Origin: an uncultured delta proteobacterium
Lineage (GTDB): Bacteria; Desulfobacterota; Binatia; Binatales; Binataceae
Direction: 5' to 3'
DNA: 64,000 nucleotides
NCBI GenBank assembly: GCA_963765675.1
Contig: CAVXXK010000006.1
Coordinates: forward strand, 352,001 to 416,000
The position numbers were made by a program, and so were the translations under genes. The notes below the pieces were generated by a model, which had not been told where the DNA came from, did not search any database, and was given only the letters and a program-made list of their open reading frames with translations. How positions within the stretch are numbered: the first letter of the stretch is position 1; each line of letters starts with the position of its first letter. Positions 42,494 through 49,468 of the stretch are shown here, in pieces.

Positions 42494-43195
42494 TCAATCG
42501 CTGACTATGAGAGGATAGCCGATTTTCGCGGCCTGGCTGGCGCGCCCTTGTGCCGCCTCGCGGGTCTCGAACGGACCCATCCGAACCCGGTAGTAATGAT
42601 TAGTTCCTGCGCCGATTTCCTCGATGTGAACGTCGTCATAGTACTGCTTCAACTGATCGCGCAGCTCGTGCGCATGCTCTGAGCTGTTGAACGAGCCGAC
42701 CTGCACGTAGAATCGCGGCTGGGTTCCGACCGCGCGCGAACCCGGCGGCGCCGACAGCAGATCGATCTTCACGTGCGCCGTACCCTTGTCGAGCATCCCG
42801 ATCATCGTCGCCGCTTTGTGCGACAGGTCAATCTTGCGGCCTTTTTTTAGCGGGCCATGATCGTTGATCAGCACCTCGACCGAACGTCCCGTGTCCAGAT
42901 TGGTCACGATCACGCGGCTGCCGAGCGGATAGATCATCGACGCAGCGGTCAGATCGTTCTGATCGTAGATGTCACCGGTCGAGGTCTGGTGGCCGCTGAA
43001 TCCCGGTCCATACCACGACGCGACGCCATACTGCGGTGCAGGATGCGCTCGGCCCGGAACCTCAACCACGGGCGCGGGGACAGGCGGAGGTGGCGGGGGC
43101 GGTTGATAGGTTGTCGCGCACGCGGTCAGCGCGATACTCATCGCGAGAGCAGCGCCGCATCGAAAGATCCAATGGTGGACCCTGTTTCCGCTCAC
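42494..43195 (-). CDS. rlpA: Septal lytic transglycosylase RlpA with SPOR domain
   Basis: Lipobox LTAC, GVASWYG, INDHGP, IDLS; SPOR motifs YVQVGSF and YRVRMGPF. Confidence 0.9.
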   Translation of the reverse strand: MSGNRVHHWIFRCGAALAMSIALTACATTYQPPPPPPPVPAPVVEVPGRAHPAPQYGVASWYGPGFSGHQTSTGDIYDQNDLTAASMIYPLGSRVIVTNLDTGRSVEVLINDHGPLKKGRKIDLSHKAATMIGMLDKGTAHVKIDLLSAPPGSRAVGTQPRFYVQVGSFNSSEHAHELRDQLKQYYDDVHIEEIGAGTNHYYRVRMGPFETREAAQGRASQAAKIGYPLIVSD

Positions 43196-43334
43196 GTTGA
43201 TTACCTCGCTTCCCGCGGTTGATTATAGATTTTCACCGGAACACGTATAAGCGTCTTGTTGATGAATCAATTTCCGGGCCTTAGAAGCGGCGACTGCTCA
43301 TGGTAGCATCCGGAGCGTTACTCAAAGAGCGAAT

Positions 43335-44507
43335 ATGTCCCCGAATTTGTTGCGAACCAGGCTGGACCTCGAGGAAATCGAAGCGCGCACGCTTGCGCCT
43401 TTTGCGATGCTTTCCCGAAACAGCCGCGGGCGCCGCGTCGCCGAGCCCGAGCATCCGATGCGCACCGTCTTCCAGCGCGACCGCGACCGCGTTATCCATT
43501 CGGCCGCCTTTCGTCGTCTCGAGTACAAGACCCAGGTGTTTGTTAATCACGAGGGCGATTACTACCGCACCCGCCTGACTCATACGCTCGAAGCCGCGCA
43601 GGTCACCCGTACGATCGCCAAGGCGCTCGGACTCAACGGCGAGCTGGCGGAGGCCGTCGCGCTCGCGCACGACCTTGGCCATACGCCCTTCGGCCATGCC
43701 GGCGAACGATGGTTAAACGAACTGATGGAACCGTATGGCGGCTTCGATCACAACGCGCAGAGCCTTCGCACCGTCGATTGGATCGAGGTGCGCTATCCGA
43801 CCTTTCGCGGACTGAACCTCAGCTTCGAGGTGCGCGAGGGCATTATCAAGCATTCTCATTTTCAGGACCGTCCCTCGGCGCAGGAGTTCGATCCTTCGAC
43901 CTATCCGTGCCTCGAAGCGCAGATCGTCGATCTAGCCGACGAGATTGCGTATCTCGCGCATGACGTGGACGACGGGCTCAAGTCCGGGATGCTCACGGTC
44001 GAGAATCTGAACGAATCCGCCCTTTATGCCGATGCTGCCGCCGACGCTCGCGCCGCGAATCCGCAAGCCGACGCACGCGTCACGCGTTACCAGACCGTGA
44101 TCAGAATGATCGACGCGATGTCCACCGATCTGATGACGAATCTTGGCGCCGAGCTCGAACGGGCGCGGATCGAAAACGTCAACGATGTCCGGCGGGCGGG
44201 CAGGGCGCTCGCCACGTTCTCGCCCGCGATGGGGGCGCGCGTCGATGAGATGAAGCTGATCATGCGCGAGCGGCTTTATCATCACTATCGAGTCAGCCGG
44301 ATGACGCAAAAGGCGGGCAGGGTGCTCGCGCGCCTGTTCGAAACATACATGGCCGAGCCGCGCCAGATGCCGGCGCACGTGCTGGCGAGGGCCGAGCGCG
44401 ACGGCGAACCGATTCCGCGTGTGGTCGCGGACTATATCGCCGGGATGACCGACCGATTCGCGCTCGACGAATACCGCAAGCTGTTCGATCCCGATGAGCG
44501 CGTCTGA
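43335..44507 (+). CDS. dgt: Deoxyguanosinetriphosphate triphosphohydrolase-like protein
   Basis: FQRDRDRVIHSAAFRRLEYKTQV, RLTHT, HDLGHTPFGHAGE, DYIAGMTD. Confidence 0.95.
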   Translation: MSPNLLRTRLDLEEIEARTLAPFAMLSRNSRGRRVAEPEHPMRTVFQRDRDRVIHSAAFRRLEYKTQVFVNHEGDYYRTRLTHTLEAAQVTRTIAKALGLNGELAEAVALAHDLGHTPFGHAGERWLNELMEPYGGFDHNAQSLRTVDWIEVRYPTFRGLNLSFEVREGIIKHSHFQDRPSAQEFDPSTYPCLEAQIVDLADEIAYLAHDVDDGLKSGMLTVENLNESALYADAAADARAANPQADARVTRYQTVIRMIDAMSTDLMTNLGAELERARIENVNDVRRAGRALATFSPAMGARVDEMKLIMRERLYHHYRVSRMTQKAGRVLARLFETYMAEPRQMPAHVLARAERDGEPIPRVVADYIAGMTDRFALDEYRKLFDPDERV

Positions 44508-45138
44508 CGGCACGACTGTGCACAGCGCGAACCGGCGCGTGCGGACCCTCGTGCTGCGGCGCGAGGACCATATCGGCGACACGCTGGGCCTCGCGTTCCT
44601 CGAAGCGCCGGAAAGCGCCGGCGAGGCGATCCTCGCACGCGTGCGCGCCTACCTGGGCGCAAAGGTAAAAATCCTGAAGGCGGAAATCTCGCGCGACAGG
44701 ATCGAAGTCGAAGTGGAGTCGCGCGGATGGCCCGACGAAGCGGCGCGTCTGGCCGCCGCCGCAACCGATCTCAGTGCGAAGGGCGCACGCCGCAACGCCG
44801 AATCGATGTTCCGCGAAGCAATCAAGATGGACGCGCTCAACCCGTCCGCGATGGCCGGCCTGGGCCTCGCGATGGCGGCGCAGGAGCGCGACCTCGAAGC
44901 GCTGGAAGCTCTAAGACGCGCCCGCGAGTTCGGCGCCGGCGGCACCGACGTTCTGATCGCGATGGCGCAGTGCGCTGCGCGCCTTGACCGGCGAACAGCG
45001 GCGCTGGGTTACCTCGAGCAGGCGCTCGCGCTCGATCCAAAAAACTTCACCGCCCGCCGCGCGATGAAAGCCTTGGGCCGCGCCCCGAAATACACCGCCG
45101 CGCCGGACGTAAGCATCCAGCGCAACAAGCGCAAATGA
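44494..45138 (+). CDS. TPR-containing protein
   Basis: TPR-like helices (AESMFREAIKMDALNP, ALGYLEQALALDPKN). Confidence 0.75.
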   Translation: MSASDGTTVHSANRRVRTLVLRREDHIGDTLGLAFLEAPESAGEAILARVRAYLGAKVKILKAEISRDRIEVEVESRGWPDEAARLAAAATDLSAKGARRNAESMFREAIKMDALNPSAMAGLGLAMAAQERDLEALEALRRAREFGAGGTDVLIAMAQCAARLDRRTAALGYLEQALALDPKNFTARRAMKALGRAPKYTAAPDVSIQRNKRK

Positions 45139-45244
45139 AATTGACCCGGGAGCCGGAGAGGCGACAAATGAGTCAAAGGATGTAGCAGCTCGAATCCAAG
45201 CGCGCTAAATTCGGTTCAATGAAACTCCGGAAGAAGCCTAGACA

Positions 45245-45382
45245 TTGACGACACCCGCGAGCGCGCGTGCCAAAGAAATCAAAGAAGTCCTGCAGGACGC
45301 AGATCTAAAAAAATTCGACCCCGAACTATTGGACGTGGCCCTCCAAACCCCGAAGAAGAAACCTCGTCCAACACGCGGATGA
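45245..45382 (+). CDS. Possible 45-aa basic small protein
   Basis: TTG-start ORF MTTPASARAKEIKEVLQDADLKKFDPELLDVALQTPKKKPRPTRG; no other support. Confidence 0.25.
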   Translation: MTTPASARAKEIKEVLQDADLKKFDPELLDVALQTPKKKPRPTRG

Positions 45383-45489
45383 CGCGGCCGTTCGTTTGAC
45401 GGTGAGCTAGCTTGCCTGTCTGGATCGCAGGAGGAGTCGCTCACGCCGCTCCGCCCGCTCAGACCCGCAGCCTTTTTGCCCTGGACAAC

Positions 45490-46560
45490 TCAGTCGAGTG
45501 TCTCTCTGAGGAGTGTGAGAAATCGCGCGGTATCCAGAAAATAGCTGGGGTATGCTTGGCGCAAGCCCGCTAAAGATGGGACGGAGACCAATACAACATC
45601 GATTCCCGGTTTACTGGCAATTTCTTTTTCAACTCTCACATATTCGTTGCTGGCTGCTTCCGCCTCGGTCGCTTTGAAGGGAGTCACCTTAAGGGTGCGC
45701 TCATTGACATCCAACTGAAGCAGAAAGTAACGGGCACTCAAGGCTTCTTTAGTTCCGACGCTTTCGAGCGCAACGTTATAGACCTGAAGGCGAGCCTCAA
45801 CTTGCAACTCATCGGCGACACGGCGCACCTGTTTCATTAGATCTTTAGCCTCCTGTGGCGTATTCCGCACGAGAGAAGTGCTTTCTCTCAATGCCAGCGC
45901 GGAACCCATGAGCGCAAAAAACCGCAACCATGCTTCTTGGCCTAGACTGGATTTGAGTGCCTGACTCAGAAACGTTCCAACTGTTTCAACAGCCATTGCC
46001 CAGATATGCTGAATTTCGGTTCGGATCTGCATTTCGATGTGAAGCGAGTCATAGGGGCACGGATGCCTGCCCCGATATCGATAGATGAGGTGAATCGCCC
46101 GGTATCCCGACGTTCTGGGGCGCTCGATGTAGTCGGTCTTTCGGCGCAAAGTGTGCCGCAGTGAACTGCGCTCGTACATTTCGACCAGCTGGCGCGCCGC
46201 CTTCACTGAGTGAACGACAGCGCGACATCCTCCAATGTCCTGCATTTGCGAGAGCGCCATATTGTGATGCAGGCGAAGCTTCAACCTGATCGCAGAGAAA
46301 CGTTTGAGTCGTTGCGATACAAACCCATGCTCATCGACCCCAGCTATCTTGTTCTTGAGAGTGCTTTGAAAGACCCACAGTGGATATCCGTGTGCAGAAC
46401 GCCAATTGTTCAGAACTACATACGCGTGCTCCCAAGCTTCCCAGTTTTCCCAGTCGGCGCCCGTCCATGAATTGTCTGTTGGTATTGGAGGCGGGTCGAT
46501 GATGATCGCAGCAGCACGATCTACTTCGTTCTTCGACCATTTTGGCGTTGCCCAAGGCAT
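45490..46560 (-). CDS. RelA/SpoT small alarmone synthetase-family protein, CapRel-like fused toxin-antitoxin
   Basis: QRLKR, MQDIGGCR, DYIERPRTSGYRAIH, EMQIRT..QHIWA; C-terminal domain ending AYPSYFLD (YXXY); visibly more AT-rich than its flanks. Confidence 0.85.
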   Translation of the reverse strand: MPWATPKWSKNEVDRAAAIIIDPPPIPTDNSWTGADWENWEAWEHAYVVLNNWRSAHGYPLWVFQSTLKNKIAGVDEHGFVSQRLKRFSAIRLKLRLHHNMALSQMQDIGGCRAVVHSVKAARQLVEMYERSSLRHTLRRKTDYIERPRTSGYRAIHLIYRYRGRHPCPYDSLHIEMQIRTEIQHIWAMAVETVGTFLSQALKSSLGQEAWLRFFALMGSALALRESTSLVRNTPQEAKDLMKQVRRVADELQVEARLQVYNVALESVGTKEALSARYFLLQLDVNERTLKVTPFKATEAEAASNEYVRVEKEIASKPGIDVVLVSVPSLAGLRQAYPSYFLDTARFLTLLRETLD

Positions 46561-46630
46561 TTGGCGAACCAACTTTTCATCAAGGTGCTCGCCATTTAAG
46601 CACCGAAGACGAACGATTCTGTTACATTCT

Positions 46631-46658
46631 AGTTTACATAATATCTGTTATGCGAAGC
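46631..46658 (-). other. XerCD dif site (chromosome dimer resolution)
   Basis: Minus strand GCTTCGCATAA-CAGATA-TTATGTAAACT: 11-6-11 layout, right arm identical to the B. subtilis dif XerD arm, left arm similar to the E. coli XerC arm GGTGCGCATAA. Confidence 0.88.
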
Positions 46659-46686
46659 TGGCATCGGCTCCGAAGCCGCCTTCGAG

Positions 46687-46905
46687 TCACGCCGTCCGAT
46701 TGCGCCATGCTGTCTGCGCGTCGATCGCGCGCTGCACCGCTGGCAGCTGCTTTAGCGAGCGGTCAATCGACCGTAGGAGATCGATCTGCTCGTCCATCCT
46801 GAAGTACGAGAACATCGACCACACCGCCCCGACCAGCGCCGCGACGCAAATCAGGCCCGCGCACAGGACCGGGTAAAAGAGCGCGCCGAATACCAAGGAA
46901 TCCAT
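46687..46905 (-). CDS. Small membrane protein, hypothetical
   Basis: 72 aa, one long hydrophobic N-terminal segment, AGGGGG RBS-like sequence upstream. Confidence 0.55.
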   Translation of the reverse strand: MDSLVFGALFYPVLCAGLICVAALVGAVWSMFSYFRMDEQIDLLRSIDRSLKQLPAVQRAIDAQTAWRNRTA

Positions 46906-46931
46906 CGCTCAACCCCCTATGTATGCGAAGT
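46904..46931 (-). other. Degenerate second dif-like site (XerC arm only)
   Basis: Minus strand ACTTCGCATAC at 46921-46931 is a direct repeat of the dif XerC arm (9 of 11 identical); the XerD-side arm is non-consensus. Confidence 0.45.
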
Positions 46932-47054
46932 AATATTATCGGTAAGGTCCATGCAAATCGTTAGCGCGGACGCCTCATTCTTGAGGCGTTGGCAGACGGA
47001 ACCCCGCCACCCTGCCAAACGAAAAGGCTATGAGTTTCAGCAAGGAGATGTTCG

Positions 47055-48383
47055 ATGATGTCCTCGGAGACTTTCAGGCCGCTCGCTTCGTCCGCGCCGC
47101 TTATCGTCTATATCGACTACAAGAGTCCCTACGCGTACCTCGCGATAGAACCGACTCAGACTCTCGAAGACGAACTCGGCATCGAGGCTGATTGGCGGCC
47201 GTTCACGCTCGACATCCCGAGCTATCTCGGCTCGGCTCGGCTCAATCAGGAAGGCAAGGTGGTTGACGCCGAGCGAACGCCCGGCCAGTGGACCAAGGTC
47301 AAGTACGCCTATCACGACGTGAGACGCTACGGATCTCTGCGCGGCATTATCGTGCGGGGAACCGTCAAGATCTGGGATTCCTCGCTGGCCGGGATCGGTA
47401 TGCTGTGGGCCAGGGAGCAGGATCGAGCGGTGCTCCGCGCCTACTCGGGCATTGTGTACGAGCGTTTTTGGAAGCGCGAGCTCAACCTTGAAGACGCCGG
47501 GGTCATCGCGCGCGTACTCGAAGAGGCCGGCGCGCGGACCGTTGGTTTCCAGGATTATGCGTCCGGCGAGGGCCGTGTACTCCACGACAGCATCCAGCGT
47601 AAAGCCTTCGATGCGGGAATTTTCGGAGTACCGACATATGTGATTAACGGTGAAGTATTTTTCGGGCGCGAGCATCTGCCGCGAATCCGATGGATACTCA
47701 CTGGCCGCTCTGGCGCACCTCCGGATGTGTCTTACGGGATCTCGGGCGAGCGTGCGCCGTCGGGCGAAATCATCAAAGGCCAGCTTCCGGTCGTGATCGA
47801 TTTCAAAAGCCCTCAGGCGTATCTCGCGATCGGACCGACCTGCGCTTTGGCGGATGAGCTCGGGATCACGATCGATTGGCGTCCGCTGCTCATTGCTCCG
47901 TCAAAGATATCCGCAGCAGATTCCGGACAGGACCGCGGCGCGCGCCATCGCCGGTTTCGCGCCGATTACCTCGAACGCGATATTACCCGCTACGCCGCGG
48001 ATCGTGGTCTCTCCATCGGGGGACGGCTCGATCGCAGCAAGGATTCAACCCTCGCCGCGATTGGCCTGTTATGGGCCAAACGCCAAGGCCCGTCGCTCGC
48101 GCGGTCATACGTCGAGCGAGTGTTCAAACGGTATTGGCAAGAGGATCTAGACATCGAAGACGAAAGCTCAATACGAACTTTGCTCACTGAGATTCACGCG
48201 CCCGTTTCGGGGTTTGAAGCATTCGCGAGAGAGGAAGGCCGCACCGAGCTTGCGCGAATTCAGTCCGAGCTTCGAGACATTGGAGTGTTCGAGGTGCCGA
48301 CCTACTTGGTGGACGGCGATCCATTCCTTGGGCGCCAACATCTGCCGTTGGTTCGCTCGCGCCTTCTCCGGGCCGCTCCATAA
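47055..48383 (+). CDS. Tandem double-domain DsbA-fold protein, HCCA isomerase / GST-kappa family
   Basis: Two homologous halves: DYKSPYAYLA...GIFGVPTY...FFGREHLP and DFKSPQAYLA...GVFEVPTY...FLGRQHLP. Confidence 0.85.
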   Translation: MMSSETFRPLASSAPLIVYIDYKSPYAYLAIEPTQTLEDELGIEADWRPFTLDIPSYLGSARLNQEGKVVDAERTPGQWTKVKYAYHDVRRYGSLRGIIVRGTVKIWDSSLAGIGMLWAREQDRAVLRAYSGIVYERFWKRELNLEDAGVIARVLEEAGARTVGFQDYASGEGRVLHDSIQRKAFDAGIFGVPTYVINGEVFFGREHLPRIRWILTGRSGAPPDVSYGISGERAPSGEIIKGQLPVVIDFKSPQAYLAIGPTCALADELGITIDWRPLLIAPSKISAADSGQDRGARHRRFRADYLERDITRYAADRGLSIGGRLDRSKDSTLAAIGLLWAKRQGPSLARSYVERVFKRYWQEDLDIEDESSIRTLLTEIHAPVSGFEAFAREEGRTELARIQSELRDIGVFEVPTYLVDGDPFLGRQHLPLVRSRLLRAAP

Positions 48384-48520
48384 GGCCGATTTCAAGGGTT
48401 TCAGTGGGTTCGTTTTCAGAACGAAGCCATTCCGAGGCTTGGCAGCCTTCCGCGAACGTCGCACGGAATGCGCGCGACGGTCTGGAAGAAGGTGGAGCAG
48501 GTCCGTATCATGGGATGCTT

Positions 48521-49468
48521 ATGAATCATCGGAGAACTTCGTCGGTTATGCGAATTGCGTGGTTGGTTGGTCTGGTCGCTATTGCGAGTGGCGCGATGCT
48601 CACGGCTCCGTGCGCGGAGGCTGCCTCGCCGGCGGCGGCGACCGAAGCGGTCCCGAGCGATGCGGCGCGCGATCAGGCGGTCAAGGTCTTCCTGCAGAAG
48701 AAGTTTCGCATCCCCTCAGTCGAGGAGATCAAGCTCGGCCCGCTCGAGCGCACCGGTATCAAGGACCTCTACGGACGCACCGTCACGGTCACCAACGAAA
48801 AGGGACAGACGGCCAGCGTCGTGATGTTCACGAATCCGGACGAGACCAAGGCGATAATCGGCCAGTTCATGGATCTGGAATCCGATCCGTGGGGACGCGC
48901 CGATCTGCGCATGATCCATCTGGAAGACCGCCCTACCCTGGGGCCTGCCGACGCTCCGGTGACGATCGTCGAGTTCGCCGATTTCGAGTGTCCGTTCTGC
49001 GCGCACGCGTTCGGAGAGATCGAGACGCTGGCCAACACCACTTACAAAGGCAAGATCAAGATCATCTTCAAGAACTACCCGCTGAACGTGCATCCGTGGG
49101 CCAAGACCGCCGCGATCGGCGCCGAATGCGCACGGCTGCAGAACCCCGACGCGTTCTGGGATTTCGCGCGTTACTATTACGCGAACCAGGGCCAGATCAC
49201 GCCGAAGAATATCCAGCAGAAGATAGACGATGAAGCCGCCAAGCTCTCGCTCGACGACACCGTGCTCAAGGCGTGCATGGCGGGTACCCAAGCGGCGCAG
49301 CGTATCGCGCAGGACCAGACCGACGCCAACGCGGTGAAGGTCTCGTCCACGCCGACCTTCTTTATCAACGGAATTCCGATCGTCGGACTGCCCGAGGGCA
49401 AGACCTTCAATTTCGTTATCGAATCGGAACTCGCGGGCAGCGCGCAGAAGGCCGCCTCTGCGAAATAA
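48521..49468 (+). CDS. Exported DsbA/thioredoxin-fold disulfide oxidoreductase
   Basis: Signal peptide, EFADFECPFC (CxxC), cis-Pro STPTFFING. Start may be 48548. Confidence 0.88.
   Translation: MNHRRTSSVMRIAWLVGLVAIASGAMLTAPCAEAASPAAATEAVPSDAARDQAVKVFLQKKFRIPSVEEIKLGPLERTGIKDLYGRTVTVTNEKGQTASVVMFTNPDETKAIIGQFMDLESDPWGRADLRMIHLEDRPTLGPADAPVTIVEFADFECPFCAHAFGEIETLANTTYKGKIKIIFKNYPLNVHPWAKTAAIGAECARLQNPDAFWDFARYYYANQGQITPKNIQQKIDDEAAKLSLDDTVLKACMAGTQAAQRIAQDQTDANAVKVSSTPTFFINGIPIVGLPEGKTFNFVIESELAGSAQKAASAK

Follow-up and report, generated by a model that had tools for sequence, protein, structure and literature searches.

A probable fused CapRel-type toxic small alarmone synthetase encoded beside the chromosomal dif site of an uncultured Binataceae-like bacterium

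The closest described relative of the gene considered here is CapRel-SJ46, the fused toxic small alarmone synthetase (toxSAS) of Salmonella phage SJ46 (PDB entries 7ZTB and 9ERV; Zhang et al. 2022, PMC9712102). According to that account, its pseudo-zinc-finger domain (pseudo-ZFD) is an antiparallel sheet of three strands, the last two of which are separated by a helix, complemented by a C-terminal helical anchor, and residues R79, R116, Y155, V338, L339, A351, Y352, and Y355 are either catalytic or make the protein constitutively toxic once mutated; R79 and R116 are given there as the adenine-coordinating arginines and Y155 as the G-loop tyrosine. The CapRel homologues tested in the same work protect against phages, and CapRel-SJ46 is reported to sense two unrelated phage proteins, not the capsid alone (PMC11578894; title of PDB entry 9ERV). 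We analyzed a 64,000-nucleotide stretch of DNA (hereafter, the window; positions 352,001 to 416,000 of contig CAVXXK010000006.1, assembly GCA_963765675.1), the sequence of which suggests a Binataceae-like source lineage. Next to dif it carries a gene that, judging from its sequence and predicted fold, probably encodes a single-polypeptide toxSAS of the CapRel family, self-inhibited and triggered by phage.

Bicistronic toxSAS modules, namely PhRel/ATphRel of phage Phrann, FaRel2/ATfaRel2, and Mycobacterium CapRel/ATcapRel, resemble the window protein in combining a homologous toxin domain with an antitoxin fold that bears a YxxY motif, as presented in PMC7229694 and PMC11782079; unlike in these modules, toxin and antitoxin are fused in the window protein. 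Blocking of the donor site by YxxY is described as the neutralization mode of the tRNA-modifying toxSAS (PMC11782079), in contrast to the alarmone-making toxSAS, which are described as having no basic tRNA pocket (preprint 10.64898/2026.04.06.716658).

The gene occupies positions 45490..46560 of the minus strand and encodes 356 amino acids plus a stop codon. The list of open reading frames (ORFs) enters it as 45490..46572, which gives 360 aa if counted from a TTG; the ATG at 46560 is the likely start, because the N-terminal consensus of the family, MAWAxPxYS in an alignment of 70 members, fits the MPWATPKWS of the window protein. An earlier note, made from the letters of the sequence, had described a stand-alone RelA/SpoT synthetase of this length lacking a hydrolase domain. 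This description holds: the ORF is intact, and a Pfam scan of the 356-aa protein found RelA_SpoT as the single domain (residues 83–189, E 3.8e-14) and no hydrolase (HD) domain. The two strings quoted in the note, NNWRSAHGYPL and VVLVS..SLAGLRQAYPSYFLD, are both present in the translation. NCBIfam models yielded sub-threshold matches only, to small alarmone synthetase (SAS) and long-RSH models, the latter weak and partial.

Profile and pairwise comparisons agree in placing the protein with CapRel. The profile search that the note had proposed gave PADLOC PDC-S33 as the strongest family match, at full length (residues 1–354 of 356 against profile positions 1–341 of 349, E 1.7e-111). In a phmmer search of the PDB, the best matches were the CapRel entries 7ztb and 9erv (E 7.3e-36, residues 44–352), at 127 bits versus 35 bits for the best ordinary SAS, which matched in the synthetase domain only (E 5.7e-08). 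When 50,697 phage records were searched, the RelA/SpoT gene of Salmonella phage SJ46 came out best; BLASTP aligns its product with residues 7–356 of the window protein at 29% identity (E 3e-46). A CapRel-like gene is also found in the P1-like Escherichia phage vB_EcoM-673R5 (L187:1462-2561), where it is annotated as an adjacent 182-aa "RelA/SpoT family protein" and 180-aa hypothetical protein; this CapRel is either split or broken.

The critical residues of CapRel-SJ46, as given in PMC9712102, were mapped by alignment, and their conservation was counted over 70 family sequences. Arginines R79 and R116 correspond to R84 and R113 of the window protein, and Y155 to Y153, each conserved in 70 of 70 sequences. 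Equally invariant (70/70) are V323, L324, and A336, the counterparts of V338, L339, and A351. Finally, Y352 and Y355 correspond to Y337 (69/70) and Y340 (68/70), the tyrosines of the putative neutralization motif Y337-P-S-Y340 (45541..45552, minus), which lies within the string AYPSYF near the C-terminal end. Thus, CapRel-SJ46 and the window protein have identical ATP-coordinating arginines, G-loop tyrosine, YxxY motif, and V-L...A scaffold.

Both proteins are single polypeptides of about 360–370 aa, and the order of their parts, toxSYNTH, anchors, pseudo-ZFD, and C-terminal helix, is the same, as predicted for the window protein. The toxSYNTH (RelA/SpoT synthetase) domain spans residues ~44–245 (45826..46431, minus) and includes R84, R113, and Y153; it is basic, with a net charge of +14 and an isoelectric point (pI) of 10.2, as is that of CapRel-SJ46 (pI 9.05), against a pI of 5.8 for one RelQ-type SAS. 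The C-terminal antitoxin/sensor region (residues 246–356; 45493..45825, minus) aligns with the C-terminal domain of 7ZTB and comprises the anchors, a pseudo-ZFD-like beta-beta-alpha-beta unit, and the terminal helix. The earlier note was right that a fused C-terminal domain is present; its length is about 110 aa. The window protein differs from CapRel-SJ46 in a shorter loop after the first beta-strand and a shorter pseudo-ZFD, both visible as alignment gaps, and in the charge of the C-terminal region, which is acidic (pI 5.2) where that of CapRel-SJ46 is basic (pI 9.9).

AlphaFold2, run on the alignment of 70 sequences, gave a model (pLDDT 85.7) with predicted strands at residues 276–284, 289–296, and 320–326 and helices at 297–313, 330–336, and 338–355. 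The predicted C-terminal domain is thus a beta-beta-alpha-beta unit followed by a long terminal helix, which is the topology described for the pseudo-ZFD (PMC9712102). Only residues 338–341, at the YxxY motif, have a pLDDT below 50, which is consistent with a hinge at this position. In a Foldseek search of the PDB, the model matched 7ztb_B with an E-value of 2.3e-23 and a TM-score of 0.71–0.73. The CapRel entries were the only full-length matches (TM 0.67–0.73); SAS1, SAS2, and RelP matched the synthetase half only, so that the full-length TM is 0.7 for CapRel versus 0.4 for these. Conservation is distributed unevenly along the protein: mean column identity is lowest in the sensor, residues 246–320 (0.53–0.58), and reaches 0.74–0.76 in the catalytic core and the anchor.

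A quick maximum-likelihood tree was computed from 22 rows, which comprised the query, 12 family members, CapRel-SJ46, two distant matches from related genomes, and, as outgroups, three RelQ-type SAS from Gram-positive phage records and three long RSH; the branches of CapRel-SJ46 and of the two distant matches were flagged as long. The query, the 12 family members, and CapRel-SJ46 share one side of a branch with SH-aLRT support of 94, and the RelQ-type SAS and long RSH lie far off. Clustering with nontoxic SAS, which the note had named as the outcome that would speak against its reading, is accordingly not seen in this tree, which holds no PhRel or FaRel references.

With the defining features given in the CapRel literature used as a checklist, the sequence and structure features of a fused CapRel are all present in the sequence or the predicted structure of the window protein, which is closer to CapRel than to RelQ/RelP-type SAS and long RSH. 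Membership in the family of fused CapRel proteins is supported by full-length similarity to CapRel-SJ46, conserved key residues including YxxY and its scaffold, and the predicted pseudo-ZFD fold, and the classification proposed in the note can be kept. The gene is an ordinary member, new to an already known and characterized family.

Several observations weigh against this assignment or its functional reading. Identity to CapRel-SJ46, the sole CapRel with a known mechanism, is only 29–30%. Two mapped positions differ: A77 of CapRel-SJ46 is S82 in the window protein (the family has A in 54 and S in 16 of 70 sequences), and A341 is S326, yet serine is the family norm at the latter position (66/70). 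The tree contains no FaRel, FaRel2, PhRel, or PhRel2 references, so that CapRel and its sister group PhRel are not separable by phylogeny. No other defense genes lie beside the gene, the neighbors of which are housekeeping genes, and neither a sigma-70-like promoter nor a Shine-Dalgarno sequence was found upstream of it by promoter scan and sequence inspection; outside the gene, the scan for promoters and terminators returned no promoter-like and one terminator-like site. Finally, the PADLOC entry PDC-S33 is a "candidate" label only. PADLOC PDC entries are derived from co-occurrence with defense genes, and, because the label is only a candidate one and the name PDC-S33 was not found in a literature search, it adds no functional evidence beyond such co-occurrence.

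By analogy with CapRel-SJ46, we infer toxicity, a tRNA substrate, autoinhibition, phage-triggered defense, and the kind of trigger. The basic toxSYNTH domain would act as a pyrophosphokinase that transfers pyrophosphate from ATP to the 3' CCA ends of tRNA, which would stop translation. In the resting state, the pseudo-ZFD would dock back onto the synthetase, with Y337 and Y340 wedged between the adenine-coordinating R84 and R113, and ATP binding would be blocked. A phage protein bound to the variable C-terminal domain would keep this domain off the active site, so that the enzyme would be switched on and the infection aborted. Capsid sensing specifically is not implied for the window protein, because CapRel-SJ46 also senses an unrelated phage protein. 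A new sensor specificity is plausible, since the sensor region varies more than any other part of the sequence; the low conservation of residues 246–320 agrees with the published idea of sensor diversification.

An alternative concerns the substrate. The protein could be an alarmone-producing toxSAS, poisoning metabolism with (pp)pApp or (p)ppGpp as FaRel, Tas1, or GRel/Pag1B do, with no modification of tRNA; the synthetase fold and the G-loop tyrosine, which are common to both kinds of enzyme (preprint 10.64898/2026.04.06.716658), would suit it as well. However, the nearest structures by both sequence and fold are those of the tRNA-targeting CapRel, the YxxY donor-site-blocking motif that PMC11782079 couples to tRNA-modifying toxSAS is present, and the toxSYNTH domain is strongly basic, while Pag1B is said in the preprint to have no basic tRNA pocket. 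We consider an alarmone product quite improbable.

Relatives of the window protein are numerous and widely distributed. At least 4,554 matches were obtained among 8,000 candidates scored in a protein collection, and 560 relatives were confirmed in species-representative genomes of Acidobacteriota, Proteobacteria, Chloroflexota, Actinobacteria, Bacteroidota, Nitrospira, and others. Metagenome contigs yielded 522 relatives and IMG/VR contigs 138. The closest protein shares 82% identity, the next ones 63%, and most 45–50%. Within its own lineage, searches of 10 genomes of the genus and 24 of the family did not find the gene (9 and 23 without one unpublished genome). The note had called the gene more AT-rich than its surroundings, and this is so: GC content is 0.51–0.55 over 45250–46750 versus 0.60–0.69 in the flanks. 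The comparison of third-codon-position GC (GC3) agrees, with 0.560 for the CapRel ORF (overall GC 0.526) versus 0.68–0.81 for five neighboring genes. The gene also runs, as noted earlier, on the strand opposite to the upstream dGTPase-like and TPR genes. It is accessory, mobile, and foreign in composition. Like the gene of CapRel-SJ46, it is a stand-alone gene on mobile DNA; unlike that gene, which resides in a P1-like prophage, it is chromosomal and lies at dif.

The dif site is found at 46631..46658 (plus strand; XerD arm AGTTTACATAA, central TATCTG, XerC arm TTATGCGAAGC), 70 bp upstream of the CapRel gene. The adjacency to dif pointed out in the earlier note involves a real site: no second copy occurs in the 4.5-Mb genome with six mismatches or fewer, and the site falls within the maximum of cumulative GC skew on its 526-kb contig (peak at 390–410 kb, site at 398.6 kb). 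The motif recurs, at two mismatches or fewer, in 65 of 81 genomes of the bacterial family (60 of 76 without five unpublished genomes), once each in 64 of the 65, with no matches to a reversed-pattern control. Two full-length Xer-type recombinases are encoded in the genome (313 and 264 bits against the XerD model). The central hexamer of the window site, TATCTG, is the sole one without a final C among the 66 family sites listed.

The CapRel gene is the only gene of a low-GC, strain-specific insert of about 1.23 kb (45397..46630), the right edge of which abuts the XerD arm of dif. In the congeners G009 and G005, with flanks 86–92% identical to those of the window, the empty site consists of a small conserved ORF, a spacer of 17–70 bp, dif, and the downstream genes. 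The small ORF, found beside dif in G005, G009, and G006, forms the ancestral left flank of the site; in the window it lies at 45245..45382 (plus strand; 45 aa from a TTG, ...DLKKFDPELL...). Horizontal acquisition of the CapRel gene, as proposed in the note, is supported, because the gene was not found in the related genomes, the site is empty in congeners, and GC3 is low. DNA sequencing reads from four runs of one study (a share of 0.12) assembled into unitigs of only 95–326 nt. Three of them are 100% identical to the CapRel ORF or its 3' flank (45406–45556, 45797–45972, and 46055–46270), and none spanned an insert junction or dif; no RNA sequencing run was listed as containing the gene.

The surroundings of the insert vary among congeners. 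In G005, the small ORF (45220–45382 in the window, ...EILxDADLKKFDPELL...) encodes 52 aa from an ATG; the corresponding ATG of the window is in another frame and its reading frame stops after 9 codons, so that the window copy either has a frameshift at its 5' end or begins with the TTG at 45245. Between the TPR gene and dif, each of the congeners examined has a different stretch of DNA, and several congener contigs end there: G005 has an extra lipoprotein-like ORF (L024, G005:C3, ~649950–650400), G006 an ArsR-like gene (L022), and G004 unrelated ORFs (L021).

[quoted passage not shown] After insertion, an IMEX is bounded by dif and by a second dif-like site, directly oriented and often degenerate. 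Unlike in IMEXs, no second dif-like site accompanies the CapRel insert: within 43000–49000, mismatch scoring found nothing above 15–16 of 28 positions, which equals the window-wide background, and junction alignments of the left end show no XerC arm and at most ~8 nt resembling the start of the XerD arm. Carriage of the CapRel gene by an IMEX is unsupported, except if the second site has decayed. A direct repeat of 17 of 23 nt that flanks the cassette (45338–45360 and 46591–46613) was likewise rejected, since the region contains other chance repeats that are as good.

On the XerC side of dif, the picture is different. An insert of about 273 bp (46644..46916) is followed by a leftover chromosomal XerC half-site, GTATGCGAAGT (46921..46931, plus), and then by flank homologous to G005; the single dif of the congeners aligns half to the window dif and half to this XerC arm, across the ends of the insert. 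It has, as far as its sequence tells, the signature expected of an IMEX, namely the duplicated XerC arm. Because this insert splits the dif of the congeners, and because the central hexamer TATCTG is unusual, Xer-type crossovers have happened at the window dif, not demonstrably for CapRel. The insert carries a 72-aa ORF (46687–46905, minus) that has a hydrophobic N-terminal stretch, a GC3 of 0.82 like that of the host, and a 79%-identical relative in a Candidatus Binataceae metagenome-assembled genome (MAG). Weak matches to it occur in 4 of 80 family genomes, one of which, unpublished, was left aside; no dif was found within ~3 kb at the three loci examined, and the match in G015 lies ~2.1 kb from the dif of that genome.

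Adjacency to dif was also considered as a trait of the CapRel clade and rejected: of 80 genome loci, one (L027) has a strict dif-like motif near the gene, and of 80 metagenome loci (372 kb) none does, with a chance expectation of ~0.5 in 752 kb, as estimated from 3 matches in the 4.5-Mb genome. The exceptional locus belongs to the best relative in the genome collection (49% identity, a "Deltaproteobacteria" MAG); its motif (L027:186-206) lies ~170 bp upstream of the CapRel start, is oriented as in the window, and adjoins the end of what appears by eye to be an IS630-type transposase ORF. This motif could be there by chance.

As to companions of the gene, the note had seen no obvious partner antitoxin; in agreement, the 282 ORFs that flank the gene at 160 related loci include no recurrent partner gene or antitoxin. 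Two ORFs of the window, those of 72 and 45 aa, were tried as partner genes and discarded, having no counterpart beside the 160 relatives. The only recurrent neighbor is a transposase of the IS1595 family, which is nearest to CapRel in 21 of the 160 loci (its cluster contains 22 flanking ORFs, one of them a mis-clustered unrelated gene). At 7 of the 21 loci (L029, L050, L068, L087, L139, L142, and L152), an inverted repeat of 25–34 nt brackets CapRel and the transposase as one unit of 2.3–3.2 kb, in the order inverted repeat, CapRel, transposase, inverted repeat, and no comparable repeat surrounds the transposase alone at these loci. An 8-bp target duplication is typical of the IS1595 family, and perfect 8-bp direct repeats are found at the ends of five of the seven units. 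Because of these bracketing repeats and duplications, the sequences identify CapRel as a passenger of IS1595 transposons in several phyla.

IS1595 elements were also encountered at dif in the bacterial family of the window, where the XerC side of the site is anchored by a thioredoxin/DsbA gene and the XerD side is highly variable. In 14 of 30 genomes (16 of 30 at a looser threshold; L196–L225), exactly 5 nt separate the XerD arm from the end of an IS1595-type terminal repeat; 10 of the 14 genomes helped to build the inverted-repeat profile, and 4 (6 at the looser threshold) are independent of it. When the 14 genomes were examined over 8 kb (L226–L239), a partner repeat was found 2.0–3.2 kb away in 10 of them. 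All ten units so delimited encode an IS1595 transposase, fragmentary in two, together with passenger ORFs (DUF3800 in three, otherwise unannotated), and none of their 34 ORFs has a PADLOC match. All ten have an 8-bp duplication at their flanks (nine perfect, one imperfect); it reads NNNNN+AGT, the XerD arm beginning with these three bases AGT, and dif stays intact. Six of the left flanks are ends of older elements, which indicates tandem stacking, and the heptamer GTTGACA is common to the inner inverted repeat and the XerD arm of the family. It follows from these alignments that the edge of dif offers, in this bacterial family, one exact position at which IS1595 passenger transposons insert. 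A literature search, the scope of which left the core IS-family literature, ISfinder, and the supplements of the CapRel papers aside, found, among the papers listed, no description of CapRel as an IS1595 passenger or of IS1595 insertion at the dif edge, and the string "transpos" is absent from the main texts of PMC9712102 and PMC7229694.

The window cassette sits exactly at this insertion position, just left of 46631. An IS1595 transposon was nevertheless rejected as the present carrier of the gene: no transposase ORF lies beside it, no 8-bp duplication is seen, the inverted-repeat profile has no match in 45200–47000 at E-values up to 100, and no flanking repeat rises above noise. The IS1595 transposase copies of this genome are on contigs C1, C4, and C14. 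The link between the CapRel-carrying IS1595 units, the dif-edge elements, and the window cassette is circumstantial, because the cassette has no IS1595 end, duplication, or transposase, and because the CapRel units elsewhere are not at dif-like targets. That the cassette is a remnant of a dif-targeting IS1595 passenger transposon, i.e., cargo stripped down at a dif-edge landing pad, is a tentative and rather unlikely explanation. No route of acquisition is favored, as the insert has neither Xer-type nor IS-type ends.

The passenger status of CapRel elsewhere bears on its function as well. The gene could be an active but mainly selfish toxin-antitoxin that favors the retention of its mobile DNA and does not serve the host in phage defense; the transposon-borne homologues, with 7 of 21 IS-linked loci bracketed and five of these seven perfectly duplicated, and the solitary position of the window copy among housekeeping genes are in line with this. 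Against it stands the protection from phages that tested CapRel homologues provide (PMC9712102). Moreover, classical post-segregational killing is hard to envisage for a fused protein, since its antitoxin is not separately degradable. We regard a mainly selfish role as very unlikely. A nontoxic RelQ/RelP-like housekeeping SAS that supplements the single long RSH, which is the only other RelA_SpoT-domain gene in the genome, is less credible still and hardly to be entertained: the weak NCBIfam match to the GTP diphosphokinase YjbM (50.7 bits) falls far below the curated cut-off of 320, the gene was not found in the 24 same-family genomes and has a foreign GC3, and the protein carries a fused pseudo-ZFD with YxxY and is separated from the RelQ-type SAS by a long branch.

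A phage-triggered, self-inhibited CapRel protein thus remains the preferred reading, under which the gene extends a very large and characterized defense family to an uncultured soil lineage, and its divergent, acidic sensor domain could help to find new phage triggers. The context of the gene is, in our opinion, more useful than the gene itself, as it bears on how one-gene immune cassettes spread: CapRel homologues move as passengers of IS1595 transposons, and in this bacterial family such transposons use the dif edge repeatedly as a precise place of insertion. Targeting of this edge by a DDE transposase, if confirmed, would be a second exploitation of dif, independent of Xer-mediated IMEX integration. 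If the window cassette is indeed a remnant of such an element, the dif edge would be a previously unrecognized delivery place for single-gene defense cassettes, at which the transposase would read the XerD arm as a pseudo-end.

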